Below, one piece after another: positions 1 through 14,610 of a DNA stretch of 15,258 nucleotides. The notes below the pieces were generated by a model, which was not told the DNA's origin, made no database searches, and was given only the letters and a program-made list of their open reading frames with translations. This DNA is from Deltaproteobacteria bacterium (GTDB lineage: Bacteria; Myxococcota_A; Polyangia; Fen-1088): contig JANRKS010000025.1 in the NCBI GenBank assembly GCA_033763315.1, positions 1 to 15,258 on the forward strand, given 5' to 3'. Position numbers and translations under genes: made by a program. How positions within the stretch are numbered: the first letter of the stretch is position 1; each line of letters opens with the position of its first letter.

Positions 1-2900
1 TCGTAGCTCCTCCAGCAGCATGTCGCCAGCGCGCACGTAAACCGCGCTGACAGCTCCGCTGCCGCCCACCTCGGCCACGATGTGGCTCAAGCCACCGTGT
101 GTATCAACGACGAAATCCGTCACGACAGCAGCGCCGCCGCCTGCGGGCGTCACCGACGTGCGCACCAACACGCCGTCAACGTCATACGTATTCTGCACCA
201 CCGTACCGTCGGCCTTCGTGACCCTCACCAGCCGGTCTTCAAAGTCCCATTCGTACGCATCACCTGTGGGTCGCTGCGTTTGGTTGCCGTTTACATCCCA
301 CACGTATGGCTGTGCGTTTTCCGTCAGCAAACGTTGCCGCTCGTCGTAGCTATAAGCCACGTTCGCAGCGCCCGCCCCCGTGGTCACCTGCGAGCTACGG
401 TTGGATACTGCGTCGTAAGCAAACGTCTTCGTGTATTGCGGCCCACTGCCGCCGCTCACACCCTCGCCCACCAAACGCCCCACGTCGTCGTACGCGTACG
501 CCCTCACCGTGCCATCAGCTTCCGTGATGGCATCACGCAAGCCGCTGGCACCCAGTGTGTACGCATAGCTTGCAATCGTGGTGTCTCCCGCCACCTTGAA
601 CGTACGAATGTTTGTGAGGCGGCCACGGTTGTCGTGCGTGTAACTCGTCTGCACGCCGTTTGGCCGCACCAACGTTGCCAGCATCCCCTGCGCATTATGG
701 CTCATCGTGAACGCACGGCCCGCTGGGTCGGTGACACCCACCATGCGGCCCGCGCCATCGTAGCCGTACGTGGTGGTGAACACCTCAGCCCCGACCTTCG
801 CCGTCAGCGTTTCCTGACGGCCAGCGGAGTCATACGTGTATTCAACCTTGCGTCCCGCAGGATCTGTCTTCCGCAGCAACCGCTGGCTGTTGTCGTAGTC
901 ATACGTCGTGGCGCCCGCGGTGTTCGTTGCCGTCAACCTGCGGCCCATCACGTTGTAGGTGAACGCCACTGACGTGCTATCGGGATACGTACGCAGCGTT
1001 TGCCGGTTGTTCACGTCGTACGCATACGTCGTCACACGGCCCTGGAAGTCCTTCCGCGAAGCCACGTTGCCGGCCGCATCGTAGGTGCGCTCTTCAAACG
1101 CTCCATCGGGCAGCACGCGCTTTGTCTCGCGGCCCATTCGATCGTATTCGTAGTGTGTCGTGTGATTGGCAGCGTCGGTGGTGGCGATGCGGTTGCCCAC
1201 TTCGTCGTATGCGTAGCGGGTCACGTTCAAAAGCGGATCCGTCACCGCCGTCAGTCGACCAAGCTCGTCGTACGTATAGGTGGTGGTCTTGCCACGCTCA
1301 TCCGTTTGCGACACCTCGCGCCCCAAGAAGTCGAACACGCTTGACCGCGTGCTGCCACCCGGATTCGTCACAACCGTGGCGTTGCCCGTTTCATCCAACG
1401 TGAACTGAGTGACCCCGCCAAGTGCGTTCGTCTCCGAAACCTTACGCCCCGCCACATCGTAACCCGTCGACACAACCGCCCCCGAAGCATCCGTGCTCGA
1501 CGTCTGCTGCCCAGCCGCATCGTACGCAAACGTTGTGGTGCCGCGCCCGCTTTGGAACGACGCCACCACCCGTCCTGCCCCGTCGTACGTTGATTCGGAA
1601 TACGTGCCGTCAGGCCGCGTGGTGCGCAGCAAGCGGCCCACCTTATCGAACGTACTGCTGGTGGTTTGACCCGCCCGATCTTTGCGAGCCACCGCGCGAC
1701 CTTCGTTGTCGTAGGTTGTCTCGTCAAAGCTCCCGTCTTGATACGTCACCCTCGTCGCGCGGCCGTTGGTGTCATACGTGGTCGTGGTCACGTGGCCAAG
1801 TGCATCCGAAGACGTCACGCGGTTGCCAACCGCATCGTACGTGTAGTTGAGCTGCGACCCATCCGCCTGCACCACGCGCGTCTCCCGCCCTTGCCCATCG
1901 TACGTGTGCGTGGTCGTCAGCGTTTCGGTGCCCGCAGAAGTGGTGCGCGTGCGCACTTCCGTCAACGGCCGGTTGTTGGCGTCGTACGTGTATGTGGTCA
2001 CCCGCCCGAGAGCGTCCGTTTCGCTCGTCTTGTTGCCTTGATCGTCGTGCGCGTAGTTCGACACATGCCCCAACGCGTCCGTCATCTGGCGCATGTTGCC
2101 CAGGAAGTCGTATAGGTACGACGTTGTTTGACCCGGCCGTGGCCCCACCTGTGTCAGCAGGTTCCCTTGGACTGAATACGTTGACGTCGTCACGTTCCCC
2201 AGCGGATCTGTCGTCGTCAACACTTGGCCAAAGCCGTTGTATGTGTGCTCCGTCCGGTGACCCAGCCCATCCACTTCAGCCGTGACGTTGTCACGCGTGT
2301 CGTATTCATACTGCCGCGTGCGCCCGCTACCGTCGGTTTCCGAAAGCACGTTGTTAAGACTGTTGTAGGTGCGCAGCGTCTCGTGGCCTTCGCCATCCAC
2401 CTCGCGCACAACGTTGCCGCGTTCATCGAACCACAAGGTCTTCGTATACCCATTGCGGTCGATCACCGTTTCTTTGCGGTTGTCCAGGTCATGCGACAAC
2501 GAAATCGCGTGGCCCAGGGAATCCGTGGTGGATATGAGGCGCCCATCAGCATCGTAGTCGTGACGAATCGCGCGCACCCCTCGCGCATCAATGATGTCGC
2601 GCAGGTGGTGAATGCGCTGGCTGTCGTAGGCAAACCGCGTTTCATTGCCTTCACGATCTGTGAAGCCGGTCAGGTTGCCATCGGGATCGTATTGGTAAGC
2701 GTTTCGCTTGCCCATCGGATCCACAATGCCGGTGATCCGGTTTTCCTCATCGCGTTCAAACGTAATGCTCTTGCCAGATGAATGCGTGATGCCGTGGGCA
2801 TCGAAGGTCAAAGAATTGCCATTGCGGTCTGTAATGCTTGTGAAGCCATCGAACTGGTCGAACTCAAGTACGCGTCCATCTTGCAATGTCAAGCGATAGC
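1..2900 (-). repeat. RHS/YD repeat region of the giant ORF
   Basis: Many YD-type repeats, e.g. TYDAAGNVASRKDFQGRVTTYAYDVNNRQTLRTYPD (~975-1086), AYQYDPDGNLTGFTDREGNETRFAYD (~2625-2700) and YEWDFEDRLVRVTKADG (~205-255). Confidence 0.93.
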
Positions 2901-5900
2901 GGCGCGGATCAAACGGCTCGAAATCACCGTCGCTTCCGCTCCACAGCTCATAGCCGCCGCTTTCGCCTGGCTGAACAAACACGTCGCCGCCTGACACCAG
3001 CTCAAGCTTTGAGTTTGTTCCAGGTTTGGCAGCGAAACCGATGGTGACGAAATCCGGTGGCGAGAAGTACTCGCACGCATCAGACACCGTGGGCTCAAAC
3101 TCATGCATCCGGCCTTCCGGCGTGATAACCGTGACCACAAGCTTGCGGGCGGGCTGCACGCAGTAACGCGGCAGGAAGCCTCCCGTGCTGGCAGCGCCGA
3201 AACCCTTTCCGAGCACCGCGTTTTCGTAAACCCGCACGCGGTTCACGTCCAGGGTCCATCCGTGACCGAAATCGCCCTTTTGCGTATTGCGGCTGTCATA
3301 GCTGCGCAGAATTTGAATCGGCACGCCAGCCATAGGTACGTTGAGATCATCGAATGTGAGTGCCACGTGGCCAAGCTTCATCTGGTCTTTCACCAGCAGC
3401 TGCATCAGCGCCTCCGCCGAACGTCCCGCCGTATCGGTGGCCGCCAAGCGAATGTCATAGATGCCATTTTCAAGCAGTGTCGGGTCGAACTTAGCCAGCA
3501 CACCCGACAACGGCGTTGAACCCGTTGCGAACGTGGACCACTCGGCGCCCGGTGTGGTTGGACGCATCTCCAAACGCCAAGCGCTAAGAGTGCTGCTGGT
3601 GACGCTGCCTTCAAGGTTGGTAGGCGCCGTGACCACCGACAAATCCAGCGGCGAGCTGAACGCGACCGTGGGCGCCGCACCTGTGGCGGCTTGACCCGAC
3701 ACAACCACCTGCGTGTCATCAAAGGCGGACTGCTGGCCATCGTGCGCCGTGAGGCGCAGCGTGTACGTGCCCACTTCTTGGAATGTGGCTGTGGTCACCG
3801 CAGCCAAAGCGTTCGCGAAGGCGACAGGCCCCGGGCCCGAAACAAGCGACCAGCGAGCCACGGGTGTCGAGCCCGCCGGCTTGCCATCGTCACCGATTGT
3901 GCCTGCGAGCAGAGCCGTGCGGCTCGGCAACAACACGGATTGTGATGGGCCAGCGTCGATGATTGGTGCCAGGTTGCCGGGCAAAACGATCACCGTGGTG
4001 TCGTCCTGCGATGAAGCGAGGCCGTCTCCCACAACAAGCCTAAAGGTGTACGTTCCAGCAGAAGCGAACGTGACCACGGTGCTAAGCGCGTTAGGTTGAG
4101 CGATGGACGCAGGAAACCCGGACGTCTGGGTCCACTGGAAATGCAGCGAGTCTGACGGAATGCCATCATCTGTGGCTGAACCGGCAAGCACGACCTTGCC
4201 CGCGCCTGGAACTTCTGTTTGCTTGTCGGGGCCAGCACTGATGACCGGCGGCTGATTGTCGGCGACCACTCGTACGGACACCGTGTCAACGGCCGACGCA
4301 AGGGTGTCGCTGACCAACAGCTCGAACACATAATCCCCTTCCAAAGCCAGATCTACCGCTGCTGCTGCAGAGTCGTAGCCCAATACATTGACGAACGTCG
4401 GGCCTGAGACTTCACGCCACTGATATCTCAATTCACCTGAGGGCAGCCCGTCATCTAATGCACTCCCGGCAAGCAGGACGTGTGTACCGGGGGATACCGT
4501 CACGTCTGCGCCCGCGTTCACAGATGGGGGAACATTCTGGCCGTTGAAGCCAACGAATACGATCACGTCATCGCTCGACGAGGCCTCACCGTCACTGACA
4601 GCAAGGCGAAGGATATATGTGCCCGCAACCGGTAGAACGACGCTCGTTGAAAGACCGTTTTCGTTGCCAAAGCGCACGCCTGCGGGGCCGGAAATCACCG
4701 ACCAGGTGGGTAGCAACGTACCATTTTCGGGCAAGCCATCGTCTGTGGCTCGGCCAACCAAAGTGAGAAGGTTCTGCGGCCAGGAGAGTTGGATATCAGG
4801 TCCGGCGGACACCGCGGGAGCTGCGTTTGGCCCGAACGCTTCAAAGACCTGGACCACAGTGTTGTCGCTGCCGAAGCGCTCGCCGTCATCGGCAATCAGC
4901 TGCAGAGTATACTGCCCTGGCGAGCTGAACGTCACATCTGTGGCAAGGGACTGAGGTGCACTGAATGTAGCGGTACCCGGGCCCGCAATTTGAACCCAAC
5001 GAAGCACGAGCCCATTCGGGGGCGTAAGATCGTCTGTGACTGTTCCTGCAAGATGTGCAGTTAGCACAGGTGCTCGCGTGTTGAGGTCGGGCCCCGCGTT
5101 AACTACGGGAGCTTCATTGTTGGGTTGAACAACGACCTGAACCGAGTCTGTCGACTCGAGCTCACCATCCGTTGCCGCAAGCGAAAGAACATATGTGCCT
5201 GCTTGGGTGAAGATAGCGAGAGGCGAGACATTCGCGGGGTTCGAGAAAGACACCTGGCCAGGCCCCGTCGCCGTCCAGGATTGACTCAAGTAACCCCAAG
5301 GAAGGCCGTCGTCGACGACGTACGCGCGATCGAGCGATACAGCCGCTCCGCTGAATGAGAGCCGCACGTCATCAATTTCGAGGTCGTTCACCGGTCCGGT
5401 GTTTATATGGCTCTCAACAAATACATTGACCCATCTTGTGAAGCGCGGCACATGCAGACGAACCTTGTACCGCCCCCACCCCTGCGTGTACGCAAGCGGG
5501 CTTGAGGTGACCGTCCGTGCCGTTGATGTATTTGCTTCGTAGTTGAACTGGACCGTAACAACCGCGTAGTCGGGGTTCGTTTCGGGAGCCGTCCGCATGA
5601 CCAACTCCAGATCAACATCAACCAGATCTGCATCGACCAGCTGCGTCTTCTCGCCGATAGGTACACCTTGGAAAAGTGTGCCGTCTCCGCCGTCCGCGAT
5701 TCTATACACATCGCCATTTCTCAAGGCCTCTGTCGATGGCACCTTGTGCCAGTTGCCCGACACGGAACTCCAACCACGTTGCGATGTCCCCAGTGTCCGA
5801 AAAGCATCGACGATTTCATTGGCGCCCAACCGCACTGATATTGCGGGACCTGCTTCAACGTCAGGTGAATGGTTCGGACCTGTGGACGGAAGAACCGTGA

Positions 5901-8900
5901 CAACCAGGTCGTCGAGGCCACGCTCTTGGCCGTCAAAAGCCGCAAGCTGCAGGCGGTAGACACCCGGCGCAGGGAAGATGGCCGTGGTGGCTGGCGCTGT
6001 CGGATCAGCAAAGATCACCTTTTCGGGTATCGTCCCGCTCGACCAGCGATAGGTTAGCCCTGTGCCCGGCACGCCATCGTCGGTGGCGACGCCCGCAAGA
6101 GCGACGGAGTTATTGGGCAAAGCGATGGTTACATCTGATCCAGCAGATACCACAGGCGCCTCATTGGAAACGGCGCCCACTGATACCGTCGCTTCATCAA
6201 AGCGGCTCTCGACGCCGTCAGACGCTGTGAGGCGGAAAACGTATTGGCCCGGTTGAGGAAAGGATATGATGGTTTCAAGTTCGGACGGTTCCTCAATGTT
6301 GGCGGTTGCAGGCCCAGATGTTTGAGTCCAAACATGAGTCATCACGCCACTAGGCAACTGATCGTCCACCACGGTGCCAATCAATCTCACCGAGGCGCCT
6401 TCGGTTGGCTGATATACACCCATGCGACCGCGAGGCTCCACGTCGTTTAGGAAGCGAAACAAGCGGGAGGCGGGATCAGCGGCATCGACTGCATTCAGCG
6501 GCAAAGCACCGCAGAACATGAGCCAGGAAACGGAGTTGAACAGGAAGTGCTGTGATGAGGGCGCAAGCGCCGCGCACGAGCTGCCATAAGTCGACGTGCC
6601 GTCGATTTCAAATCCGTACCGCTTGAGAAAGGAACTCCAGACTGATGACTCTTCGGCTGGCGAATAAAACCCAGTCCCCAGGGTCAGGAAGACGTTGCCA
6701 CCCAAAGCGACGTAGGCATTCAATGTGTCGATATACTGCGCGTCGAGGTCGCCTACGAACAGGCCGTCGTAGGTCAACAGGCTTTCGAGATCTTTGCCAG
6801 AGCCATCAGAAGGCGACCATTCGTGCGAGTGCCCCGCCAAAGCCAGGGCCGCATGAAGCTCTTCACCATGGGGCCATTGGGGACCCGTTTGGAAGTCAAG
6901 GAATCTGCCACCACCAGCTGGAGCAAAGTAGTTGGCCAGATTCACAGCAAATTCCGCTCCGGATACACCCGGGGAAAAGCCCTGATTTGAAAGAATCCAT
7001 TCATCCGAGTCGACGACAACTTTTCCCCGCCCCGAAGCGTTTCGTACAAAGGCACGTTTATCCACACCCGCATCAACCTGGGGGGGCTGATTGGAAGGAG
7101 CCACCTCAATGGTGGCTTCATCAGAAGCTGACGAATAGCCGTCGGTCGCCGTGAGCTTCAAGACGTAGCTCCCAGGTGCAGAAAACGTCACGGTCGTGGC
7201 CGGAATAAACGGCTCCGTAATGGTGGCTGTGCCCGGTCCGGAAACAACAGTCCACTGCACAGACGCAAATCCAGCGCTGTTAACTACAGTTCCCGAAACG
7301 TTCGCTTGCATTGACGGCGTCACAACGTCAGGTCCGGCGTTGACAAGCAACGGCGGCTTGGCCGTTCCATCTACCGTGAAGCTAACATCGTCGCTCGATG
7401 TGAATTCTCCGTCCGAGACCGTCAACCTCAGAACATAAGTGCCCGGGTTTGGGAAACGGACGTTCGAATGGACGTCGTGCGGATTGTCGATGGCTGCGGC
7501 ATTTGCAGGGCTGACGTCTGCCCATGTAATGGACAAGCTTGCACCGATTGGCTGACCATCATCTCTGGCCACACCTTGCAACTGCGTATTTAAAGCATAG
7601 AGGTAACGATCAGCACCGGCGCTTGCGATGGGCGGCGCGTTCATAAATGAGTCGTCGTTCACGATCGTCGCAAAAGCCTCGGACCGAATGAGGCTGGCAC
7701 CACTAGTCTGTGACAAAAGCAACCCGAAAGATTCGTCGGATTCAATCGCAAAATCAGAATTGATCGTGACCTCAACCGTGGTTTCCCAGGCTCCCGCCAC
7801 AATCGTCGCCGTCCCGTTTGTCGGGACATAGTCGCTGCCCGCTGTCGCCGTTCCATCTTCAGTGGCGTAGTTGACGGTCACAGGATGAACGCTTGGCGCC
7901 GACAAACGAAGGTGAAACACCGCCTTCAACGGCGACGCGCTGTCTTCCACCACTGACACATCGTTCACAGTGAGCGACGGATCGCCTGTTCTAAAGTCGA
8001 AAAGGCGCCCGCCATTTTCCGCACCTTGGTTGTCGCGGGCGACCACACGCCAAAAATACCGTGTGTCATCGATGAGAGAGCTGGCATCAAAGTGCGCGCT
8101 GGCCGCATTCGCAGACACCGTCGAAAGCGTGCCAATGGCGTTGCCCATCGACCATAGATCGGCCTGCGGCGTTGTGCTTGCTTGGCTGTCCACACCACCA
8201 AAGACAAGCAATCGGTTGCGGTTAGCAGAATAGGCCGCCACGTGCCCAAGCCGCTGCGCAGGTGAGGCTTCGCTCGCTGCCTGCACCCTCGTCCACGTGG
8301 GTGCAGCCGCATTGTTCAAGTTCAGCAGCCAACTGTCCTTCAGGCCGATGCTGTCATTGTTGACCACGGCGCTGCTGCCACCATGAACCAAAAGCCGCCC
8401 AGCTACAGGTTCGAGTGACAATGAATGCCCCCACCGCCCTGCAGGGCCTACGCCGCTGATGTTGAGCTTTTGCCACGTGGGAGTTCCAGAACGACTGGCG
8501 GCGCCATTCAAAACCCACACATCAGATAGAACAGTTCCCGTCGCCGATCGACCTCCGAAAAGGTAAAGGCGATCCGCTGCCGCATCGTAAGCCAAGGCCG
8601 CGCTCGCTCGTGCTGCAGGCCGGGTGCCTGCCACTGCAAGAGGCTGCCAGCTGGGCGTTCCGCCACCCGCAACGTTGTTGAGCACCCACACATCATTCGT
8701 TGGCAAGCTGGCCGCCTCTGGAATGCCACCAAACACGATCAGTTTGTGAGACACCTGATCGTAGGCCGCCGCGTGTTCACGCAAAGCCACGGGAGAGGCG
8801 GGCAGCGCGGTCCACGCTGCGGGTCCCATGCTTAGACCTGTCACAACTTTCGCGTCTGCCAGGGATGAAGCGCATGTGCCGGCACAGCCACCATGAATCA

Positions 8901-10395
8901 CGAGCGCCTGCGCCGACTCATCGAAGGCTGCCACCGCGAATTTGCGTGCAGAAAGCGCAGAGCCAGCAGGCACGATCGTTTGCCAGAAGGCGCCTTGTCC
9001 CACGGTGGTTGCGTTGTGAAGCACGCGCAGATCGGCCACTGGCCCCGCCGCCGTTTGCCCACCGAAAATGAACGCACGATCCGTGTCGTCATCATACGCC
9101 GATGCGGCAAAAGCGCGGCCCACCGGTGCGCCCGTGGCACCACACTGAGGTTGCCACGTTTGCCCATTCGTCGTGACAGCGGTGCCCAACTGCACATCAA
9201 AGGTCAGCGGCTGGCTTTCGGGATCAGATGCCGTCCACGCAATCGTGGTTGCGGCAGGCAAACCGGACGAGCCCATGGCAGGCGATCGTGATGATGGCAC
9301 GCTGGGCGCTTCGTTCGGCTCGTCATCGTCGATGATGAGGCCCGTGGCGTTTGCTTGCCCTAACGTGGCGCCAACAGCTTCTCCCAGTTGAACAAAGAAC
9401 TGCTTATCTGGTTCGGGCACCAGATCACCAAACACAGGCACGGAGAATGTTTGAACGGTTTGGCCAGGCGCAAAGGTGATCACGGCACCACGACGAAGGT
9501 AATCACAACCAGCCACCGCGCTGCCGTCCACCGTTTGCGCGGCCACCGTCACTTCATGATCGGACGCGAGCGAAAGCGACACATTGAAGTTCGCAGTCGT
9601 TAGTCCCGTGCTGCCTTCGGCAAGCGTGACATTGCCAACGCTAACCGTAGGACCTGATGGCGCTGTGACAGTGACGGACACGTCAGCAAAAGCAGTAAGC
9701 GCAGAATCGCTTACCGTCACGCGGACCACATACGATCCGGCGGCCCGAAAAAAGGCGGAGGTGCTGTTCGCGTTCGGGCTCACAAAGTCAACCACGCCGG
9801 GACCACTCACCAAAGACCACGCATAGGCCAACGCCGAGCCGGCTGGCAGCCCGTCATCAGTGGCGGTTGCCGTCAGCAAAACATCGGCACTGACCGCAGC
9901 CGTAGAAGGCGTGGCCGTCGCAGTGACGGTCGGCGCAACGTTTGTCGGACAACGTGTTGAGTTCGAAGACGCCGTTGACGTCCGCGGCCCAAGCTTCCAC
10001 ACAAGGTTCGAGCCGTTGAAGGCCACCGTGAACACATCCACGTGTCGCCCCGGCGCAAACAGCACAGGTTGCCCCCGATCGAGCGGCGAAGGAGTGAACT
10101 TGTTGTTCGCCCCCACGGGCACGCTCACCGAGTCAGTGACGGTGTTCAAGTATCCGAAGTGCGCCGTGTATTGCCCCGGCCCATCGGCGGTGACGCACTC
10201 TAAGATCGGGCGCAGCAGCGACGCATCGGTGAGGAGCGCTTGACTTGAATTAAGGTCCGCGTGATCGGGCGGTTCGCTGCACCCTATGCCTAACGAGGCA
10301 AGCGAAATAACACATAGCGCTGAGAAGGCTCTCGACCATTCATGCGCGAAATATTCCGCGCCCGACCGCATCATCACACCAATTGGACTAGCCAT
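1..10395 (-). CDS. Giant secreted RHS/YD-repeat protein with PKD/Calx-beta/Kelch stalk (3' end outside window; at least 3465 aa)
   Basis: One minus-strand frame (codon starts at multiples of 3) reads without a stop through the stretch I translated continuously (10395 to ~3240) and in spot checks down to base 1. The track lists no terminated ORF in this frame. It begins MASPIGVMMRSGAEYFAHEWSRAFSALCVISLASLGIGC, with GGGAG ~8 nt upstream of ATG 10395; alternative ATGs are at 10374 and 10371. At the window edge it reads ...TYDVDGVLVR...DFVVDTHGGLSHIVAEVGGSGAVSAVYVRAGDMLLEELR, typical of the late RHS core. Confidence 0.93.
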   Translation of the reverse strand, partial: MASPIGVMMRSGAEYFAHEWSRAFSALCVISLASLGIGCSEPPDHADLNSSQALLTDASLLRPILECVTADGPGQYTAHFGYLNTVTDSVSVPVGANNKFTPSPLDRGQPVLFAPGRHVDVFTVAFNGSNLVWKLGPRTSTASSNSTRCPTNVAPTVTATATPSTAAVSADVLLTATATDDGLPAGSALAYAWSLVSGPGVVDFVSPNANSTSAFFRAAGSYVVRVTVSDSALTAFADVSVTVTAPSGPTVSVGNVTLAEGSTGLTTANFNVSLSLASDHEVTVAAQTVDGSAVAGCDYLRRGAVITFAPGQTVQTFSVPVFGDLVPEPDKQFFVQLGEAVGATLGQANATGLIIDDDEPNEAPSVPSSRSPAMGSSGLPAATTIAWTASDPESQPLTFDVQLGTAVTTNGQTWQPQCGATGAPVGRAFAASAYDDDTDRAFIFGGQTAAGPVADLRVLHNATTVGQGAFWQTIVPAGSALSARKFAVAAFDESAQALVIHGGCAGTCASSLADAKVVTGLSMGPAAWTALPASPVALREHAAAYDQVSHKLIVFGGIPEAASLPTNDVWVLNNVAGGGTPSWQPLAVAGTRPAARASAALAYDAAADRLYLFGGRSATGTVLSDVWVLNGAASRSGTPTWQKLNISGVGPAGRWGHSLSLEPVAGRLLVHGGSSAVVNNDSIGLKDSWLLNLNNAAAPTWTRVQAASEASPAQRLGHVAAYSANRNRLLVFGGVDSQASTTPQADLWSMGNAIGTLSTVSANAASAHFDASSLIDDTRYFWRVVARDNQGAENGGRLFDFRTGDPSLTVNDVSVVEDSASPLKAVFHLRLSAPSVHPVTVNYATEDGTATAGSDYVPTNGTATIVAGAWETTVEVTINSDFAIESDESFGLLLSQTSGASLIRSEAFATIVNDDSFMNAPPIASAGADRYLYALNTQLQGVARDDGQPIGASLSITWADVSPANAAAIDNPHDVHSNVRFPNPGTYVLRLTVSDGEFTSSDDVSFTVDGTAKPPLLVNAGPDVVTPSMQANVSGTVVNSAGFASVQWTVVSGPGTATITEPFIPATTVTFSAPGSYVLKLTATDGYSSASDEATIEVAPSNQPPQVDAGVDKRAFVRNASGRGKVVVDSDEWILSNQGFSPGVSGAEFAVNLANYFAPAGGGRFLDFQTGPQWPHGEELHAALALAGHSHEWSPSDGSGKDLESLLTYDGLFVGDLDAQYIDTLNAYVALGGNVFLTLGTGFYSPAEESSVWSSFLKRYGFEIDGTSTYGSSCAALAPSSQHFLFNSVSWLMFCGALPLNAVDAADPASRLFRFLNDVEPRGRMGVYQPTEGASVRLIGTVVDDQLPSGVMTHVWTQTSGPATANIEEPSELETIISFPQPGQYVFRLTASDGVESRFDEATVSVGAVSNEAPVVSAGSDVTIALPNNSVALAGVATDDGVPGTGLTYRWSSGTIPEKVIFADPTAPATTAIFPAPGVYRLQLAAFDGQERGLDDLVVTVLPSTGPNHSPDVEAGPAISVRLGANEIVDAFRTLGTSQRGWSSVSGNWHKVPSTEALRNGDVYRIADGGDGTLFQGVPIGEKTQLVDADLVDVDLELVMRTAPETNPDYAVVTVQFNYEANTSTARTVTSSPLAYTQGWGRYKVRLHVPRFTRWVNVFVESHINTGPVNDLEIDDVRLSFSGAAVSLDRAYVVDDGLPWGYLSQSWTATGPGQVSFSNPANVSPLAIFTQAGTYVLSLAATDGELESTDSVQVVVQPNNEAPVVNAGPDLNTRAPVLTAHLAGTVTDDLTPPNGLVLRWVQIAGPGTATFSAPQSLATDVTFSSPGQYTLQLIADDGERFGSDNTVVQVFEAFGPNAAPAVSAGPDIQLSWPQNLLTLVGRATDDGLPENGTLLPTWSVISGPAGVRFGNENGLSTSVVLPVAGTYILRLAVSDGEASSSDDVIVFVGFNGQNVPPSVNAGADVTVSPGTHVLLAGSALDDGLPSGELRYQWREVSGPTFVNVLGYDSAAAAVDLALEGDYVFELLVSDTLASAVDTVSVRVVADNQPPVISAGPDKQTEVPGAGKVVLAGSATDDGIPSDSLHFQWTQTSGFPASIAQPNALSTVVTFASAGTYTFRLVVGDGLASSQDDTTVIVLPGNLAPIIDAGPSQSVLLPSRTALLAGTIGDDGKPAGSTPVARWSLVSGPGPVAFANALAAVTTATFQEVGTYTLRLTAHDGQQSAFDDTQVVVSGQAATGAAPTVAFSSPLDLSVVTAPTNLEGSVTSSTLSAWRLEMRPTTPGAEWSTFATGSTPLSGVLAKFDPTLLENGIYDIRLAATDTAGRSAEALMQLLVKDQMKLGHVALTFDDLNVPMAGVPIQILRSYDSRNTQKGDFGHGWTLDVNRVRVYENAVLGKGFGAASTGGFLPRYCVQPARKLVVTVITPEGRMHEFEPTVSDACEYFSPPDFVTIGFAAKPGTNSKLELVSGGDVFVQPGESGGYELWSGSDGDFEPFDPRRYRLTLQDGRVLEFDQFDGFTSITDRNGNSLTFDAHGITHSSGKSITFERDEENRITGIVDPMGKRNAYQYDPDGNLTGFTDREGNETRFAYDSQRIHHLRDIIDARGVRAIRHDYDADGRLISTTDSLGHAISLSHDLDNRKETVIDRNGYTKTLWFDERGNVVREVDGEGHETLRTYNSLNNVLSETDGSGRTRQYEYDTRDNVTAEVDGLGHRTEHTYNGFGQVLTTTDPLGNVTTSTYSVQGNLLTQVGPRPGQTTSYLYDFLGNMRQMTDALGHVSNYAHDDQGNKTSETDALGRVTTYTYDANNRPLTEVRTRTTSAGTETLTTTHTYDGQGRETRVVQADGSQLNYTYDAVGNRVTSSDALGHVTTTTYDTNGRATRVTYQDGSFDETTYDNEGRAVARKDRAGQTTSSTFDKVGRLLRTTRPDGTYSESTYDGAGRVVASFQSGRGTTTFAYDAAGQQTSSTDASGAVVSTGYDVAGRKVSETNALGGVTQFTLDETGNATVVTNPGGSTRSSVFDFLGREVSQTDERGKTTTYTYDELGRLTAVTDPLLNVTRYAYDEVGNRIATTDAANHTTHYEYDRMGRETKRVLPDGAFEERTYDAAGNVASRKDFQGRVTTYAYDVNNRQTLRTYPDSTSVAFTYNVMGRRLTATNTAGATTYDYDNSQRLLRKTDPAGRKVEYTYDSAGRQETLTAKVGAEVFTTTYGYDGAGRMVGVTDPAGRAFTMSHNAQGMLATLVRPNGVQTSYTHDNRGRLTNIRTFKVAGDTTIASYAYTLGASGLRDAITEADGTVRAYAYDDVGRLVGEGVSGGSGPQYTKTFAYDAVSNRSSQVTTGAGAANVAYSYDERQRLLTENAQPYVWDVNGNQTQRPTGDAYEWDFEDRLVRVTKADGTVVQNTYDVDGVLVRTSVTPAGGGAAVVTDFVVDTHGGLSHIVAEVGGSGAVSAVYVRAGDMLLEELR
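3241..3680 (-). other. Linker Ig-like domain plus DUF6531-like RHS N-terminal segment
   Basis: Translation ...LAKFDPTLLENGIYDIRLAATDTAG... followed by DLNVPMAGVPIQILRSYDSRNTQKGDFGHGWTLD. This matches the DL-x-IP...RxYxS...G-x-FG-x-GW motif that precedes RHS repeats. Confidence 0.8.
3700..7641 (-). repeat. Tandem array of 10 PKD/K319L-like Ig domains (two carry insertions); an 11th copy lies at ~9661-9935
   Basis: Recurrent ~90-aa unit N-x-[AP]-P-x-V-x-AG-x-D...L-x-G-x-x-x-DDG-x-P...W...SGP...F...G-x-Y-x-L-x-L-x-x-x-DG...D. Copies at about 7370-7641, 7100-7355, 6178-7092 (split), 5890-6165, 5128-5874 (split), 4845-5118, 4552-4827, 4264-4536, 3982-4257 and 3700-3975. Confidence 0.85.
7651..7980 (-). 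other. Calx-beta domain 2
   Basis: PSLTVNDVSVVE...VFHLRLSAPSVHPVTVNYATEDGTATAGSDY...IESDESFGLLLS...ATIVNDD is a canonical Calx-beta pattern. Confidence 0.9.
8140..9180 (-). other. Six-blade Kelch/galactose-oxidase-like beta-propeller
   Basis: Six repeats carry the GG doublet: AFIFGG, LVIHGG, LIVFGG, LYLFGG, LLVHGG, LLVFGG. Most are preceded by an R-x-x-[HA]...YD-like segment and followed by D-x-W and a W-x-x-L-like segment. Confidence 0.9.
9322..9651 (-). other. Calx-beta domain 1
   Basis: PTVSVGNVTLAEGSTGLTTANFNVSLS...TVDGSAVAGCDY...ITFAPGQT...VFGDLVPEPDKQFFVQL...ATGLIIDDD. Confidence 0.88.
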
Positions 10396-10427
10396 ACTGG
10401 ATTCTCCCTGGGTCTAGCGATACTGGA
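10385..10427. promoter_or_regulatory. 17-bp direct repeat flanking the putative RBS of the giant gene
   Basis: GGACTAGCCATACTGGA (10385-10401) and GGTCTAGCGATACTGGA (10411-10427) are 15/17 identical with a 26-bp period. The repeat is seen directly; the regulatory role is inferred. Confidence 0.5.
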
Positions 10428-10502
10428 ACAACCCAAAAAGAGTCAAAGAAGAAATGCTGTGTCACCTAATATTCACGTCTGGACATGCGCTAAGTCGCCG
10501 GG

Positions 10503-10586
10503 GTCATATATGACTTCTATGACTCGTGGCTATGACCTTTATGACTCCGGCGTATGACTTGTGCTGCGTTGCACCCGTCTCATACG
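10503..10586. repeat. TATGAC hexamer array (22-bp period) with inverted copies
   Basis: TATGAC starts at 10509, 10518, 10531, 10540 and 10553 (spacing 9,13,9,13). An inverted GTCATA at 10503 makes the palindrome GTCATATATGAC. CGTATGA (10551-10557) and TCATACG (10580-10586) form an inverted pair. Confidence 0.8.
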
Positions 10587-10623
10587 GAAAACATAACGTT
10601 GCGCCGGCGCCTCTTGACAACCC

Positions 10624-10870
10624 GTGATCAACGTCCTCGAACAGCTCGCGGTGGCGGGCACCCACAGACGGGGCCGCCACAAATGTCGCCTTTGCGCGAG
10701 ACGCCCGAACGGGAGCGATCGATTTGAAAGTCGAACGCCGGGTTGACCCGCATCTCTACGAACTGACGCAGCCTTTAGGTAGTGAGCGCGCTCCAAAGAA
10801 GGGCGGCCGTGGCGCCTCCACCAGAGCACGTGCTTTCAGGCTTACTCCTGTGCGGCAAGTGCGGCGTCAA
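10624..10870 (+). pseudogene. Frameshifted internal fragment of a large serine recombinase (end of recombinase domain plus start of Zn ribbon)
   Basis: Three collinear motifs lie in three frames. VINVLEQLAVAGTHRRGR starts at 10624 (cf. V-x-x-IL-x-NP-x-Y-x-G). AIDLKVERRVDPHLYELTQ lies at ~10715-10771 (cf. PAIVD-x-E-x-F-x-x-AQ). HVLSGLLLCGKCG lies at 10827-10865 (cf. Zn-ribbon motif LSGLL-x-C-x-x-CG). No catalytic resolvase domain is seen. Confidence 0.68.
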
Positions 10871-10987
10871 ATATCCACTCGGCCAAAGGTCAATCGATGT
10901 CGGCAGCACTCTTAGGGCGCGCGGGATAACTCGCCCACAACAAAGTGTGAACGCCCAAACCCTACCATCAGGGTGGCGGGGGAAAGG

Positions 10988-11752
10988 TCAACGCCAAACT
11001 GAGTGCCCTATCTTGCCAAGGAACGAAAGCGCCGTGGACAGATTCGACCAGATGGTCGAATGCTTCACAAAGGCGTCTAGGGAACTGCCCTCGACGATTT
11101 GGATTCGCCCATCTGCGCCGCCAGATGGTACGGGTTGGAATCGTGTGTTTGCTTCGCGCGAAGCAGGAGCCCCAGACTGTTCGTTCGTAGCTTTGGGTGC
11201 GGCGGCGTTTGGGTCGAGCCGATCGCGGCGGTAGGGAGCAGTCGCAAAAATTTCTTCGTAGCGCGTGTCCGTTACGATGAAAAGATCGTCGGGGAGCTTG
11301 TCGTACTCCGATGAAGCATCGGCTTCCGCGAACTGTCGAATACGTTCTATTTCGGAATCGATTCGCACGGCGATAGAAGCGAATGGTGTGTGACCAACTT
11401 CAGCGCTGCGGATCCACCTCGCCCATTCGAACCAATCCACCGGATTGTCTACCGGCACCAAGTGCCTAAAACCCAGCCGACATATTCGCTTCGTTGCGCA
11501 TTGGCCAAGCGTGCATAGCATCACCTGAAGACGTACACCTTGTTCAAGAAGATCTCGCACGTCCCACACGCCCTTCTCAAGGTCAAGAAGCGCGCCCGTC
11601 GTTGAATCCCGAATCAGGGCGGGATGATAGTGCAGGAACAGCTTGAAATAAGCGTTCAACGCGCTTTTAAACTCTTCGATCCGAGAGAGAACAAGGCGGC
11701 TTTGTTCAGACAGAGGGGTATCAGTGCTGCCGTGCGATGATTCCGAGGGCAT
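10988..11752 (-). CDS. Hypothetical protein (254 aa)
   Basis: Long ORF with globular-looking composition. ATG 11752 (MPSESSHG...) has GAGG about 8 nt upstream and is preferred over the track start at 11821. No family recognised. Confidence 0.7.
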   Translation of the reverse strand: MPSESSHGSTDTPLSEQSRLVLSRIEEFKSALNAYFKLFLHYHPALIRDSTTGALLDLEKGVWDVRDLLEQGVRLQVMLCTLGQCATKRICRLGFRHLVPVDNPVDWFEWARWIRSAEVGHTPFASIAVRIDSEIERIRQFAEADASSEYDKLPDDLFIVTDTRYEEIFATAPYRRDRLDPNAAAPKATNEQSGAPASREANTRFQPVPSGGADGRIQIVEGSSLDAFVKHSTIWSNLSTALSFLGKIGHSVWR

Positions 11753-12013
11753 GGCTAGATCCTCGTACCAATGGAGGTCCAGTGCAAGCACCTTTTGGCG
11801 GTGATTTTGAAGCATCACCAACTTCTTGAGTTGCTGGTTCTTTGTCTTTGCGCCTGTTGTCCAAAATCAAATCCGCCAAACGCCTTCGCTACCCGAGGCA
11901 AATTGGTTGAAGGCACTTTCGTGCCGCCAGCGGCACCTGCCGTCGCACCTGCGTGAAACGTTTCGGGCAAGGCCAATTTGAAGCGGGCGAGTGAACGAGC
12001 AATCATCGATCAC

Positions 12014-12508
12014 ATGAAGGCCGCCCGCTTGAGTCCAGAACTTCAGGCTTCGTTGCGCGACGCCATTGTGGCGGAGAGAAATGCCGACGCGGCGCTTGAT
12101 GCGCGACGTGCACACGTGGATCGTCTGCTTCAAGAGATGCGATCGAATGGCGTCTCATTTGATCGCATTGCGATCGAAGCGTTTAAGGCGCGGCGTGGAC
12201 GGCCGCCGCGTGCAAAGGAACGATTGCGCGAGCGTGCACGCCTTCGCCAACGCTACTGTCGCATGAAGGTGAAGCTGGGCGTGACGTGCGGTCACCGAGA
12301 TCCTCTGGCGACCACCGGTCAATCGCCGTCGGTTCACGTAGCCTTGGCAAGCAAGGAGTTAGCGAACATGAACGACCCACGATTGATAAAGCGGACAACG
12401 ATCGAAGAGACTTACACCACGTCAAGCAAGGCCAGCTTGGGCGACGCCGATCTTGGCGACGACGAACTGGACGATGTGGACGACGACGAGGACGAGGACG
12501 AGAGCTAA
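12014..12508 (+). CDS. Hypothetical helical protein with Arg-rich segment and acidic tail (possible DNA-binding protein)
   Basis: In-frame ATG at 12014 (track start is TTG 11978). Contains NGVSFDRIA (HTH-like), then RRGRPPRAKERLRERARLRQR, and ends DADLGDDELDDVDDDEDEDES. Confidence 0.65.
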   Translation: MKAARLSPELQASLRDAIVAERNADAALDARRAHVDRLLQEMRSNGVSFDRIAIEAFKARRGRPPRAKERLRERARLRQRYCRMKVKLGVTCGHRDPLATTGQSPSVHVALASKELANMNDPRLIKRTTIEETYTTSSKASLGDADLGDDELDDVDDDEDEDES

Positions 12509-12512
12509 GTCG

Positions 12513-12827
12513 ATGGGCCGCTCCGTAAGCAAAGCAACGGGGGCGTGGGTTATGAAGGAACCGACCAATGCCTGCGCCACCGTTGCTTGGGCCCGCACAC
12601 TCATCGAGGCCGGCTACCGCTACCCAAGGTCGAACAAGTGTTTGCTTGCATTGGGCTTGGTGGCGTCCACGATGCCGGCATTGGGTGACGGTGCGGCGTA
12701 CACGCGAGCCGAACGGCGGGCGCGTCGAAAGGGCTGCGCGAATGCCGTGGTTGCAGGCGCGCAGGAGGCGGCGGCCTTGCTGAGCCATGCGTGCGGCAGG
12801 CCCAAGCGCCCCAAAGCTAAACGATAG
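12513..12827 (+). CDS. Hypothetical basic protein (104 aa)
   Basis: ATG lies 4 nt after the stop of the upstream gene, which is operon-like spacing. Helical, basic sequence (YTRAERRARRKG). No family recognised. Confidence 0.5.
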   Translation: MGRSVSKATGAWVMKEPTNACATVAWARTLIEAGYRYPRSNKCLLALGLVASTMPALGDGAAYTRAERRARRKGCANAVVAGAQEAAALLSHACGRPKRPKAKR

Positions 12828-12854
12828 GCAGTCTATCAGGGCGGGAGGACCCTT

Positions 12855-12999
12855 CCGCAGGGGGGAGCTTTTGGCGGCCCCGCAGGCCAGGCGCATGGGG
12901 GAAACGATAGCGCCGCACCCTGCGCCCGCAGGGGGTGGACGCCCACGCCCGCAGTGTGCGCTCGTGTTGCAAGGTCGCCGAAGCCGCAGCCTACGCAGG
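12855..12999 (+). repeat. Cluster of CCGCAG motifs upstream of the HTH gene
   Basis: Exact CCGCAG at 12855, 12880, 12926, 12949 and 12984, with a near copy ACGCAG at 12993. Dyad CCCTGCG-CC-CGCAGGG at 12918-12933. Confidence 0.55.
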
Positions 13000-13029
13000 G
13001 GCCAACAGCGACCGAGAAAGTGGTCAGAG

Positions 13030-13731
13030 ATGAACCCAACTACAACCACAATGATCTTTGGCTGGCCCAGTATCGCCAAGACCCTGGGGCTTTCGGTCCG
13101 TCGGGCGCGCGAGATCGTCAGTGCGCGCGGCCTTATTGCCGAACGGCGCAACGACGGCGCCGTTGGCGTGCCTGCGCAAGCATTGCGCGCATTGGCAGAA
13201 GAGCTGGGTGACTGCCGTCGCGAAGATGGGGCTGTGATCGAAGGCGTTGCCGAGCCCCATCCTGAACATACGCCGACCTTGGAGGGCGATTTAGAACCGT
13301 CAGCCGAAGTTAGCCCACCAGCACTTGATGCCCGGTTGGCCAACGGAGGGTGTGACATTGACGACGAGGGCGAACGTGCACGCGACTTGAGTGCAGAACT
13401 TGATCGCCAATACTTGCTTATGGAACAGCTTGACGTTCGCATCCAAGGTGTTGCTCAACACAGTTCCACCGTGACAGCACGTGTAAATCAAACGGAGTCG
13501 CTGCTGTGGCAACAAAAGCAAAGCGCCGCTCGCGATCGTCAGTGGTTATGGGCGCTGAAAGCCGAAGTGCAACAGTTGCGCCGGCAAGTTGAAGCCTTGG
13601 AAGGCGCGCTAAGAGCCATGCCGATGGCGTTGGTGTCCACGGGCCACAAATGCGGGGCGTGTGGTGCCAAAGCACTGATGAGCCCGGTGGGTTGTGGCGC
13701 TTGTGGCCTTGGTATCGGACCAGGTCGATAG
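13030..13731 (+). CDS. HTH (excisionase/MerR-like) / coiled-coil / C-terminal C4 zinc-finger protein
   Basis: N-terminal IFGWPSIAKTLGLSVRRAREIVSARGLIAERRNDG resembles GW-x-x-IA-x-x-LG-x-S-x-R winged HTHs. An acidic Pro-rich linker is followed by heptads LKAEVQQLRRQVEALEGAL and C-terminal CGACGAKALMSPVGCGACG. Start is probably ATG 13030 or 13051 rather than 12787. Confidence 0.75.
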   Translation: MNPTTTTMIFGWPSIAKTLGLSVRRAREIVSARGLIAERRNDGAVGVPAQALRALAEELGDCRREDGAVIEGVAEPHPEHTPTLEGDLEPSAEVSPPALDARLANGGCDIDDEGERARDLSAELDRQYLLMEQLDVRIQGVAQHSSTVTARVNQTESLLWQQKQSAARDRQWLWALKAEVQQLRRQVEALEGALRAMPMALVSTGHKCGACGAKALMSPVGCGACGLGIGPGR

Positions 13732-13749
13732 GCTCCTTCAGGATCTGAA

Positions 13750-14100
13750 CTACTTGCGGGCAGCCAACCGTTGAGCGACAAGCAGCAACGCTTTGACATC
13801 TGCGGCAGGCAGATTGAGCGCGATTTCTGCGAGGCGCTCCGCATCGTTAGCTGAACGCTTTTCGTCCGCTGTCAGGCGCGAGTCCGAAAACAGCTTCCAC
13901 ATCGGCTCGTCCAAAGCGCCGGCAATCCGCTCCAGCACTTCCAACCTTGCCTGGCGGGCGCCACCTTCGATCTTGACGAGGTAGCTCACTCCCAGTTCGG
14001 CGTGCTCTGCAAGCTGAAGCTGCGTCATGTCGTGCTGTAAGCGTAACTCCTGGATGCGCTTGCCAAGTCGCGTATTTAGGTTGGGTTTGGCCACTACCAC
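13750..14100 (-). CDS. XRE-family (Cro/CI-type HTH) transcriptional regulator with C-terminal helical extension
   Basis: LGKRIQELRLQHDMTQLQLAEHAELGVSYLVKIEGGARQARLEVLERIAGALD is a canonical HTH_3 pattern. Start is GTG 14100 or 14094. Confidence 0.93.
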   Translation of the reverse strand: MVVAKPNLNTRLGKRIQELRLQHDMTQLQLAEHAELGVSYLVKIEGGARQARLEVLERIAGALDEPMWKLFSDSRLTADEKRSANDAERLAEIALNLPAADVKALLLVAQRLAARK

Positions 14101-14148
14101 CTGGGTAACAAGTTGGCCCTGCTAGGGGAAGCGACTGCCTGGGTCATC

Positions 14149-14179
14149 TATTGCACTGCCAGTGCTATACGTGTATTCT
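14149..14179 (+). promoter_or_regulatory. Sigma70-like promoter overlapped by a palindromic operator
   Basis: TTGCAC (14151-14156)-N17-TATTCT (14174-14179). The dyad TATTGCACTG-C-CAGTGCTATA (14149-14169, 9/10 arm matches) covers the -35 box and most of the spacer. Confidence 0.62.
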
Positions 14180-14201
14180 TCGCGGCAAGGTGGAGGTGGC
14201 G

Positions 14202-14522: not shown

Positions 14523-14547
14523 GTCGGCACCCACGAATCTGAAGAAT

Positions 14548-14570: not shown

Positions 14571-14610
14571 GCTTGAGGTAGGCAACAGAACGAGCAACAA
14601 TGCGTTCGGA

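Follow-up and report, generated by a model that had tools for sequence, protein, structure and literature searches.

Complete domains nested within PKD and FN3-like hosts in the stalk of a giant, predicted lipid-anchored RHS-type protein

RHS and other polymorphic toxins have been studied mostly as cargo of secretion systems, and the present locus may bear on how giant, Sec-exported, surface-anchored members of this group find their targets. In the window, which denotes the whole analyzed stretch of 15,258 nucleotides, a single minus-strand open reading frame (10395..1) encodes 3465 residues of a protein, P0001, and the region 5128-9315 on the same strand corresponds to residues 361-1756. The first-pass annotation had claimed that three Ig-like domains in this region are each interrupted by a complete foreign domain. 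The questions raised by the locus are whether these host domains are truly split and what such an arrangement would mean for a protein of the RHS type.

Overall architecture of P0001

The gene of P0001 (1..10395, minus strand, as are all features given below; 3465 codons) has no closed 3' end, as the contig begins at base 1 of the window. A Pfam search of the 3465 residues matched 17 families, and the order from the N-terminus was a lipoprotein-type signal, a stalk of PKD, Calx-beta and FN3-like domains, and an RHS shell. The N-terminal signal (10279..10395) was read from the sequence and contains LGIGC with Cys39, which we take, from the familiar pattern, to be a lipobox. P0001 is predicted on this basis to be a lipoprotein anchored by lipid.

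In the stalk, an intact PKD at residues 152-244 (9664..9942; Pfam and our own PKD profile) is followed by Calx-beta domain 1 at residues 264-358 (9322..9606; Pfam, E 1.8e-14 on the piece). Calx-beta domain 2 occupies approximately residues 808-915 (7651..7974; Pfam), two intact PKDs lie at residues 919-1009 and 1012-1100 (7096..7641; Pfam and own profile), and further intact PKDs were located with our own profile at residues 1411-1503 (5887..6165) and, as five tandem copies, at residues 1760-2234 (3694..5118). This profile was built from seven intact repeats of P0001 and gave 11 matches in the protein, two of which were N-truncated. The Pfam K319L-like PKD family (PF22352) matched at E 4e-107, above its curated cut-off, in 10 tandem stretches. 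A Pfam match to PA14 at residues 1356-1412 was rejected, as no single stretch passes alone and the match overlaps a PKD body.

Residues 2339-3465 (1..3381, cut by the contig end) were assigned by Pfam to DUF6531 and the RHS repeats of the shell. The RHS (YD) repeats matched PF05593 (RHS_repeat) at E 1.3e-111 in 16 stretches, preceded by DUF6531 (PF20148) at residues 2339-2385 with 26.6 bits (cut-off 24.1). With its YD repeats and N-terminal DUF6531 plug region, P0001 has the shell and plug features of RHS/YD-repeat polymorphic toxins and is probably one of them. In Rhs and Tc proteins, an RHS shell with DUF6531 is a toxin-encapsulation device. The payload is absent from the window because the contig ends, and no toxin domain was visible within the window, where the reading frame runs off the contig start. 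The RHS-associated core motif and any immunity gene, like the C-terminal toxin, would be located past the contig end. A search of the genome for the missing C-terminus gave two TIGR03696 matches, which belonged to two other, complete RHS genes.

Three interrupted hosts and their passengers

One of the three hosts is FN3-like. Its N-terminal half spans approximately residues 365-407 (9175..9303), with strands B (385-388) and C (398-404) assigned by DSSP on an AlphaFold2 model, and its C-terminal half spans residues 758-805 (7981..8124), with strands C', E, F (YFWRVVARD) and G assigned by DSSP and conservation. Between the halves, at approximately residues 408-757 (8125..9174), lies the first passenger, which matched the Kelch family PF24681 (E 4e-43 on the piece) and superposed on the LZTR1 Kelch domain 9mey_B (VIA Z 36.4, rmsd 2.4, 304 residues aligned, model range 56-401). 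Both results point to a six-bladed Kelch beta-propeller. The AlphaFold2 model of residues 355-1503 (8 alignment rows, mean pLDDT 78.6) placed two and four host strands on either side of the propeller; strand A was not predicted in this model, and pLDDT was low before residue 395. The C-terminal half weakly matched the corresponding half of two FN3-like Pfam families, PhoD_N (E 0.015, positions 47-82 of 90) and Ig_Rha78A_N (E 0.017, positions 58-90 of 105). Both halves (378-407 and 756-806) were kept in 7 of 119 other homologues, with a spacing of approximately 350 residues wherever both were present, and an eighth homologue, whose N-terminus is cut, retained only the C-terminal half. As the FN3/Kelch unit is unchanged in all 8 homologues holding it, it showed no sign of swapping.

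The next host, split PKD 1, starts with an N-piece at residues 1102-1117 (7045..7092; NQPPQVDAGVDKRAFV), which corresponds to positions 1 to approximately 15 of our own PKD profile and holds strands A (1106-1108) and A' (1113-1116) by DSSP. The following profile match was found only from residue 1333 and covered profile positions 18-91 with 64 bits. This N-truncated body (residues 1333-1408; 6172..6399) lies 233 aa after the orphan A/A' strands and holds strands B to G according to the profile and DSSP, and the Pfam K319L-like_PKD match (residues 1333-1394) starts at profile position 11. The fragment modelling that had been proposed for such hosts gave the strand order and complement of a split domain; in the model of residues 355-1503, the strand complement of split PKD 1 by DSSP equals that of the next intact PKD.

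The passenger of split PKD 1, with approximately 215 aa at residues 1118-1332 (6400..7044), was delimited by DSSP and a family profile and displays an alternating beta-alpha pattern in the same model. Pfam gave no family at E ≤ 0.01 and only a match to ABC_transp_aux below threshold, and a comparison of the passenger alone with PDB sequences gave one chance match (E 0.14). At E ≤ 1e-3, the passenger family comprises 475 clusters, many members of which are free-standing proteins of 230-290 aa. The family profile matched the GIFT domain of IFT52 (5fmr_A) at E 0.001 over 68 positions, three of 38 aligned rows matched OST48_N and three matched ThuA, and Atlas leads to GIFT/ThuA scored 0.90-0.94. 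PEP-CTERM and dockerin tags were present in 16 and 4 of the 38 rows, respectively, and the family is therefore considered extracellular. Based on the E value of 0.001 and the Atlas leads, the passenger may represent an unnamed extracellular family that is remotely GIFT/ThuA-like.

In the case of split PKD 2, the N-piece was delimited from sequence and DSSP at residues 1508-1522 (5830..5874; NHSPDVEAGPAISVR), with strands A (1512-1514) and A' (1519-1522), and the next PKD match appeared only at residues 1691-1757. Its N-truncated body (residues 1684-1758; 5122..5346; Pfam, own profile and DSSP) lies 188 aa after the orphan A/A' strands; the match to our own profile begins at position 25 and the Pfam match at position 13. 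The AlphaFold2 model of residues 1504-1760 (17-row alignment, mean pLDDT 88, pTM 0.75) gave strands A and A', a domain at model residues 19-180, and then strands B to G. The N-piece was modelled as two short strands, with a mean pLDDT of 88-92 over the first 20 model residues.

The third passenger, an FBA/CBM-like jelly roll of approximately 160 aa at residues 1523-1683 (5347..5829), was recognized by VIA and Foldseek (Foldseek E 1.8e-7) and had no Pfam family at E ≤ 0.01. It superposed on the Fbs1 sugar-binding domain 2e31_A (Z 17.5, rmsd 2.4, 156 residues aligned, model range 19-180), CBM61 (Z 14.4, 2xom_A), CBM16 (Z 13.7, 2zew_A) and CBM4-2 (Z 13.5). The modelled jelly roll thus has the fold of CBM4/16/61 and the Fbs1 sugar-binding domain, and sugar binding is putative, as fold likeness to lectins or CBMs alone does not show binding. 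All three passengers are complete, independently existing domains.

Evidence for split hosts and their recurrence

In both PKD hosts, the chain is interrupted once strands A and A' have formed (approximately 16 residues, roughly profile position 17-19) and before strand B. An equivalent loop had been claimed for the two cuts and was found; however, the cut does not directly follow the AG motif, as had been supposed, but lies after both A and A'. The two N-pieces start 2-8 residues beyond the intact PKD that precedes them and the two bodies stop 2-5 residues short of the next PKD; therefore, the hosts are in register with the tandem PKD array. Among 120 giant homologues, 54 cases of split PKDs were found in 39 proteins, all at the A'-B loop, a frequency (39/120) that is overstated because the homologues were retrieved with a query containing split domains. 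Five unrelated passenger families occupy this loop, in agreement with the earlier suggestion of an insertion hotspot, and a second insertion site, located mid-domain, is also present in PKD domains.

An alternative is that the passengers lie linearly between PKDs, with the orphan segments being strand-A-like linkers and the next PKDs being truncated or completed by a passenger strand. The late start of the split PKD 2 body, at own-profile position 25, would suit such an arrangement. The covariation test, in which column pairs were learnt on intact PKDs, also gave a negative score for split PKD 2 of P0001, which fitted its own body worse (-3.44) than its neighbours (-0.62 and -1.03), with its B strand unaligned to the profile. 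At the family level, however, the same test favoured split hosts: the N-pieces fitted their own body better than flanking intact bodies in 62 of 108 comparisons, which were not independent, worse in 45 and equally in 1 (Wilcoxon p 0.01), and held-out intact domains gave 345 of 512. Complex prediction with the 30-residue N-piece and 80-residue body of split PKD 2 scored a weak 0.38 against 0.18 for the best of three controls. Of 80 solved complexes, 58 attained this mark, as did 2 of 110 mismatched pairs; at scores of 0.60 or less, just 7 of the 80 solved complexes attained it, together with both passing mismatches. At least 95% of contacts agreed between the runs, and partner pLDDT was at least 64; as PKD folds are already solved, resemblance to known structures may account for the pass. 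In the fold searches, no PKD structure was superposed on N-piece plus body among the matches listed, because passenger matches filled every list.

Other observations stand against linear passengers. The N-pieces matched the profile from position 1 in 54 of 55 candidates (5-22 bits, mostly >10) and ended at position 14-26, and the bodies begin at 12-25. When gaps of at least 60 aa were counted in the 120 homologues, an orphan A-strand motif directly followed the previous domain in 52 of 79 gaps before an N-truncated PKD match but in only 6 of 185 before a full match (Fisher p 4e-28). The confident prediction of the N-piece as two short strands and the strand complement shared by split and intact PKD in the model argue in the same direction, and a linear arrangement is considered improbable. 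The pairing of strands A/A' with the distal PKD body is given as a prediction, which draws on DSSP, pLDDT, profile complementarity and the weak tests above. A split look could also arise, without functional meaning, from an assembly artefact, a frameshift or mobile DNA recently inserted into a PKD repeat, and the assembly does consist of 40 contigs with the P0001 gene at a contig end. This explanation is scarcely credible, as the frame is open over 3465 codons, the homologue P0008 (40-44% identity) has the same domain order and the same two split PKDs, and the 54 cases come from independent assemblies; insertion of an intein or a mobile element was rejected on the same grounds. Thus, the observation of three stalk domains interrupted by complete domains was confirmed, with profile complementarity, strand order in the models and recurrence all bearing it out.

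The A'-B loop of PKD domains appears, from the comparison of homologous sequences, to be a recurrent insertion site, filled through repeated insertion or through the spread of host-plus-passenger cassettes. In a FastTree analysis of 54 host bodies and 170 intact PKD bodies over approximately 75 columns, CBM hosts required 18 changes versus approximately 35 with shuffled labels and did not form one clade, and the four hosts of the alpha/beta-passenger type did not cluster. As the first-pass annotation had suggested for a homologue comparison, the same loop was found to hold different passengers, and some relatives lack the split PKDs: the close relative P0037 lacks the second, and P0080, P0061 and P0069 lack both. 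The proposal of a swappable array would be compatible with the PKD passengers, whose content varies among close relatives, but no sign of swapping came from the invariant FN3/Kelch unit.

Searches beyond these homologues were also conducted. With split PKD 2, no protein of near length was found at E ≤ 1e-10 among 1072 candidates, and a locus search of genome contigs with the single split PKD 2 protein returned only 2 partial PKD matches. Passenger homologues were absent from 40 relatives and from 400 same-phylum genomes searched. Of 400 genomes sampled from the phylum to which the genome of one homologue belongs, only G436 (the centre) and G490 contained a near-full-length passenger match.

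Comparison with known systems and proposed role

Insertion of a vWFA or I domain into a host of Ig-like or propeller fold is known from Gram-positive pilus tip adhesins and integrins; these are other protein classes with other hosts and do not carry arrays on a toxin stalk. The split domains of RTX adhesins are reportedly treated by Graham et al. (2024, Proteins 92:933). In PMC12077191, the Ig-like split domains of the RTX adhesins MpIBP, FrhA and AhLap are described as budding off ligand-binding domains after the first strand, and such domains are reportedly also treated in PMC10865825. P0001 resembles RTX adhesins in that the chain quits a rod domain once the first beta-strand has formed, folds a complete domain (CBM, vWFA or others) and then finishes the host; several split units stand among plain extenders, distal to an N-terminal anchor, and a CBM-like jelly roll is among the passengers. 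The polarity is also alike, running from anchor through extender and split-domain binding region to a distal functional end. By their sequence and models, the interrupted and then completed hosts of P0001 would fit the RTX-adhesin definition of a split domain plus ligand-binding domain unit. Unlike the RTX adhesins, as described there, P0001 uses PKD (K319L-like) or FN3-like hosts instead of BIg extenders, a predicted lipid anchor instead of a retention domain, and an RHS cage as its distal end. Pfam found neither RTX repeats nor type I secretion parts in the 3465 available residues, the extreme C-terminus lying beyond the contig end, and P0001 is probably not a member of the RTX adhesin family.

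According to PMC6486591, receptor-binding domains are inserted at conserved points in the A subunits of Tc (ABC) toxins, and the authors call these points susceptible to evolutionary transfer of sequences. The likeness is that fixed scaffold loops accept structurally unrelated domains, which in Tc toxins are thought to set tropism. In contrast, their scaffold, as presented there, is an alpha-helical shell with a neuraminidase-like domain on a separate pentameric A subunit, whereas in P0001 a monomeric stalk of Ig-like domains, fused to the shell protein itself, takes this part. Bacterial teneurin-like proteins are surface-exposed YD-shell toxins with a variable C-terminal toxin; those from Gram-negative bacteria are predicted to be SPII lipoproteins and vary in their N-terminal adhesion domains, which are not presented as nested in the available text (PMC13018210). 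P0001 shares the YD shell and the predicted lipid anchor with the proteins described there. Unlike them, it showed no NHL propeller, TTR, FN-plug or TIP by Pfam in the available residues, although absence from Pfam is no proof.

The claim that this layout is undescribed was wrong in general, since the RTX-adhesin split domains share the topology (PMC12077191); for PKD hosts in RHS proteins, the literature search found no description. Nested display is thus known from RTX adhesins and apparently not yet described for the RHS toxin class.

With a probability of approximately 0.7, we read P0001 as a giant lipid-anchored protein of the RHS (YD-shell) polymorphic-toxin type whose split-host stalk displays binding modules. 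The N-terminal two thirds would form a rod of approximately 15 beta-sandwich domains (PKD, Calx-beta and FN3-like), three of them split hosts, in which the chain would form the first strand(s) of the host, depart to fold a complete autonomous domain and return to finish the host. The Kelch, GIFT/ThuA-like and FBA/CBM-like passengers may project sideways without breaking the rod, serve in target recognition and attach to glycans or proteins at the surface of a target cell or matrix. Such binding could position the distal RHS cage, which would release a C-terminal toxin.

The nested domains might instead be real but serve the producer, with P0001 being mainly an adhesin or matrix protein; they would then fasten the stalk in the exopolysaccharide, S-layer or biofilm matrix of the producer, or mediate kin adhesion. 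PEP-CTERM sorting signals, which together with dockerin tags occur in the free-standing family of the alpha/beta passenger, are linked to exopolysaccharide-producing bacteria; rods of Calx-beta and PKD domains are typical of adhesins, and the window holds no visible toxin domain. However, the toxin-encapsulating shell with DUF6531 speaks against a producer-serving role, as do the homologues annotated as RHS repeat-associated proteins that carry the same stalks, and we regard this role as rather unlikely.

If the nested modules of the preferred RHS-toxin reading are recognition parts, the fixed loop would locate candidate receptor-binding domains from sequence only, in a search applicable to thousands of unannotated giant metagenome proteins, and the split-domain rule would extend beyond RTX adhesins. 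A broader proposal is offered only tentatively, as we doubt it more than we believe it: the A'-B and mid-domain loops of K319L-like PKDs may act quite generally as docking sites, used again and again within a large and undescribed class of RHS toxins that are giant and surface-anchored and belong to bacteria of soil and sediment. A split PKD could then be a search rule revealing new ligand-binding domain families, with the GIFT-like family, a domain of approximately 300 aa and an SBBP-type propeller as candidates, and the passenger set of each toxin would encode which neighbours can be attacked. Independently of this proposal, the analysis delimits the alpha/beta passenger as an unnamed, probably extracellular domain family that also exists free-standing with PEP-CTERM or dockerin tags.

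Domain organization of the stalk protein

The window comprises the first 15258 bases of the contig, in a 7.6-Mb genome of 40 contigs. The giant RHS stalk protein, P0001, is encoded on the minus strand by a single open frame of 3465 codons that starts at 10395 and runs off the contig at base 1. Its domain order was determined with Pfam together with a PKD profile derived from seven of its intact repeats. The N-terminus carries a signal peptide with the motif LGIGC (Cys39), which we take to be lipobox-like, and the region between this motif and the first PKD domain (residues ~46-150; window 9946-10260, minus strand) matched no Pfam family even at E ≤ 10. A PKD domain (residues 152-244) and the first Calx-beta domain (264-358) come next. 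Behind them lie an FN3-like host with a Kelch propeller set into it (about 365-805), Calx-beta domain 2, and two PKD domains (919-1100). Subsequently, split PKD 1 (1102-1117 and 1333-1408), an intact PKD domain (1411-1503), split PKD 2 (1508-1522 and 1684-1758), and five further PKD domains (1760-2234) lead to DUF6531 and RHS repeats, which occupy the frame to its end, all on the minus strand. Residues 361-1756 correspond to the stretch in which the first-pass annotation had described foreign domains nested in Ig-like hosts. The feature is real, and that structural reading was essentially right: P0001 consists of an Ig-like rod that carries three complete domains within its loops and is joined to an RHS shell.

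Split PKD domains and their insertion site

Each split PKD domain starts 2-8 residues past the preceding PKD domain with the N-x-x-P-x-V-x-A-G strand and a second short strand (the N-piece). Interruption of the PKD hosts by an inserted domain was borne out by this orphan A strand, followed 233 (split PKD 1) or 188 residues (split PKD 2) on by an N-truncated PKD body that begins at position 18 or 25 of our profile, respectively (Pfam positions 11 and 13). The stretches between N-pieces and bodies matched no Pfam family at E ≤ 0.01. The cut had been placed at an equivalent position in both hosts, just after the first strand; the equivalence held, but the cut falls in the A'-B loop, behind both strand A and strand A'.

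The pairing of N-pieces with distal bodies was evaluated by covariation and complex prediction. Column pairs learnt on intact PKD domains scored a split domain's own distal body above those of flanking domains in 62 of 108 non-independent comparisons (p 0.01), below them in 45, and equal in one; among held-out intact domains, the own body was favored in 345/512. Within P0001, split PKD 1 agreed with own-body pairing, whereas split PKD 2 did not. In complex prediction, the 30-residue N-piece of split PKD 2 with its 80-residue body scored 0.38, compared with 0.18 for the best of three controls; the runs shared at least 95% of their contacts, and the partner's pLDDT was at least 64. The mark used was reached by 58/80 solved complexes and 2/110 mismatched pairs, and, at scores of 0.60 or under, by 7/80 solved complexes and both passing mismatches. 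Resemblance to solved PKD folds may be what produced this pass. Together, covariation and the predicted complexes point weakly to pairing of the N-piece with its distal body.

A homologue search with residues 1095-1760 yielded 137 giant proteins of 1.9-6 kb, and the 120 matches listed were analyzed. RHS families occurred in most of these 120, and the named sources were Acidobacteriota, Myxococcales, and other MAGs. The homologue P0008 reproduces the P0001 architecture in every domain (40% identical in the search, 44% over residues 356-1406), P0016 and P0031 contain these modules plus extra PKD domains, P0037 is without split PKD 2, and P0080, P0061, and P0069 retain the FN3/Kelch-Calx-PKD block with both split PKD domains absent. 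The PKD profile gave 1564 matches across the 120 listed homologues. When a gap of at least 60 aa preceded an N-truncated PKD match, the orphan A-strand motif stood right after the previous domain in 52/79, compared with 6/185 gaps before a full match (Fisher p 4e-28).

With slightly wider criteria and one false case dropped, 54 split PKD domains were found in 39/120 listed homologues, a frequency biased by the split domains in the query. Their inserts fell into five unrelated classes: CBM-like (38 cases; 133-171 aa, plus one of 572 aa), a class without a Pfam family (7 cases; about 300 aa), the passenger-1 type, i.e., that of the domain in split PKD 1 (4 cases), an SBBP-type propeller (4 cases; 427-458 aa), and a singleton. 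All classes share the same boundaries (N-piece at profile positions 1 to 14-26, body from 12-25), which supports this PKD loop as a recurrent insertion site, as the proposed hotspot had implied. Repeated insertion and the spread of host-plus-passenger cassettes were not told apart by the host-body tree. Passenger variation did not extend to the FN3 host; the FN3/Kelch unit did not differ among the 8 homologues having it, and no uninterrupted version was seen.

A second PKD insertion site, mid-domain at profile position about 46-56, was observed in 9 cases in 7 proteins (P0004, P0010, P0015, P0026, P0046, P0078, and P0091), with inserts of other types (186-362 aa). Double nesting was observed in P0033 (residues 1014-1602), where the 572-aa CBM-like passenger is interrupted by two ConA-like domains (GH43_C2/DUF1349-like).

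Predicted folds of hosts and passengers

Residues 1504-1760 were modeled using AlphaFold2 with a 17-row alignment built from locus references (mean pLDDT 88, pTM 0.75). In the model, two strands (1512-1514 and 1519-1522; block pLDDT 88-92) precede a domain of residues ~1523 to 1683, after which come PKD-body strands B to G. The inserted domain is predicted to be a lectin-like jelly roll; it aligned with the Fbs1 sugar-binding domain 2e31_A (VIA-align Z 17.5, rmsd 2.4, 156 residues, model residues 19-180) and with CBM61, CBM16, and CBM4-2 (Z 13.5-14.4), and its best Foldseek E-value was 1.8e-7.

Residues 355-1503 were modeled with an 8-row alignment, also from locus references (mean pLDDT 78.6). 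Residues 406-757 form the Kelch propeller (Z 36.4 to LZTR1), preceded by two strands (385-388, 398-404) and followed by four (759-803, including the YFWRVVARD strand). The flanking strands combine in the model into an FN3-like sandwich whose cut lies in the loop between C and C'; its strand A was not predicted, and confidence was low before residue 395. The strand complement of split PKD 1 equals that of the intact PKD domain after it. By strand assignment in these fragment models, the strands before and after the passengers of the two split PKD domains add up to the host complement, as single split hosts would predict.

Passenger 1 (window 6400-7044, minus strand) was modeled as an alternating beta-alpha domain. 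Its family, which includes proteins P0121-P0269, comprises 475 clusters at E ≤ 1e-3 (221 of these at E ≤ 1e-10), has no Pfam model, and contains many free-standing members of 230-290 aa. The domain sometimes occurs in 2-3 tandem copies. In an alignment of 38 rows (the P0001 domain and 37 short free-standing members), PEP-CTERM was carried by 16/38 and dockerin by 4/38; thus, the family is extracellular. The family profile matched the IFT52 GIFT domain 5fmr_A (E 0.001), three members matched OST48_N and three ThuA, and Atlas leads were TCAF_N, DUF4092, and IFT52_GIFT/ThuA clusters. The fold is probably GIFT/ThuA-like. With the Kelch and jelly-roll domains modeled as full folds and the passenger 1 family often free-standing, the passengers are, as far as testable, complete foreign domains, as originally claimed.

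Known systems, proposed action, and distribution

In RTX adhesins, complete ligand-binding domains bud from Ig-like split domains past the host's first strand (PMC12077191). Insertion points for unrelated receptor-binding domains in Tc toxins are conserved and called susceptible to evolutionary transfer (PMC6486591), and Gram-negative teneurin-like YD-shell proteins are predicted to be SPII lipoproteins whose N-terminal adhesion domains are diverse (PMC13018210). Of the teneurin-like features, Pfam detected the YD shell in P0001 but no NHL, TTR, or TIP family. P0001 is not an RTX adhesin, since RTX and type I secretion parts were not found by Pfam in its 3465 residues. Neither the full-text literature searched nor passages from a preprint on giant genes described passengers nested in PKD domains or RHS stalks. 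The novelty claimed for the layout was narrowed: the principle is known from another giant surface-protein class, but its occurrence in the PKD hosts of RHS-type toxins appears to be new, as do the passenger breadth at one loop and the unnamed passenger family.

The N-terminal cysteine may be lipidated and would anchor P0001, with the rod holding the RHS cage away from the cell. Ig-like sandwiches are roughly 4 nm long each, and ~15 of them would give a reach of some tens of nanometres. The three passengers would stand out from the rod and attach to glycans or proteins on a target surface, after which the RHS cage would release a C-terminal toxin, as other Rhs proteins do. The toxin, core motif, and any immunity gene of P0001 lie beyond the contig end.

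Neither the gene nor its passengers were found with the query used in 40 relatives or 400 genomes of the same phylum; where the closest loci and proteins had a named source, it was an Acidobacteriota MAG. Horizontal transfer or poor assembly of such genes would fit this patchy distribution. At window positions 10396-15258, no secretion-system or immunity-like gene was recognized, and the long upstream ORFs at 10988-11821 and 12183-13442 (both minus strand) matched no Pfam family. An ORF at 12787-13731 (plus strand) gave a sub-threshold wHTH match, and a TPR protein that begins at 14485 (plus strand) continues past the window's end. Two further RHS-core matches in the source genome are separate, complete genes, neither with a PKD stalk: a 3197-aa protein with SpvB, FG-GAP, PPC, and RHS families, a TcB/TcC-like fusion (G000:C19:512597-522190; L180:2098-11691), and a 1481-aa DUF6531-RHS protein (G000:C22:2502-6947; L181).
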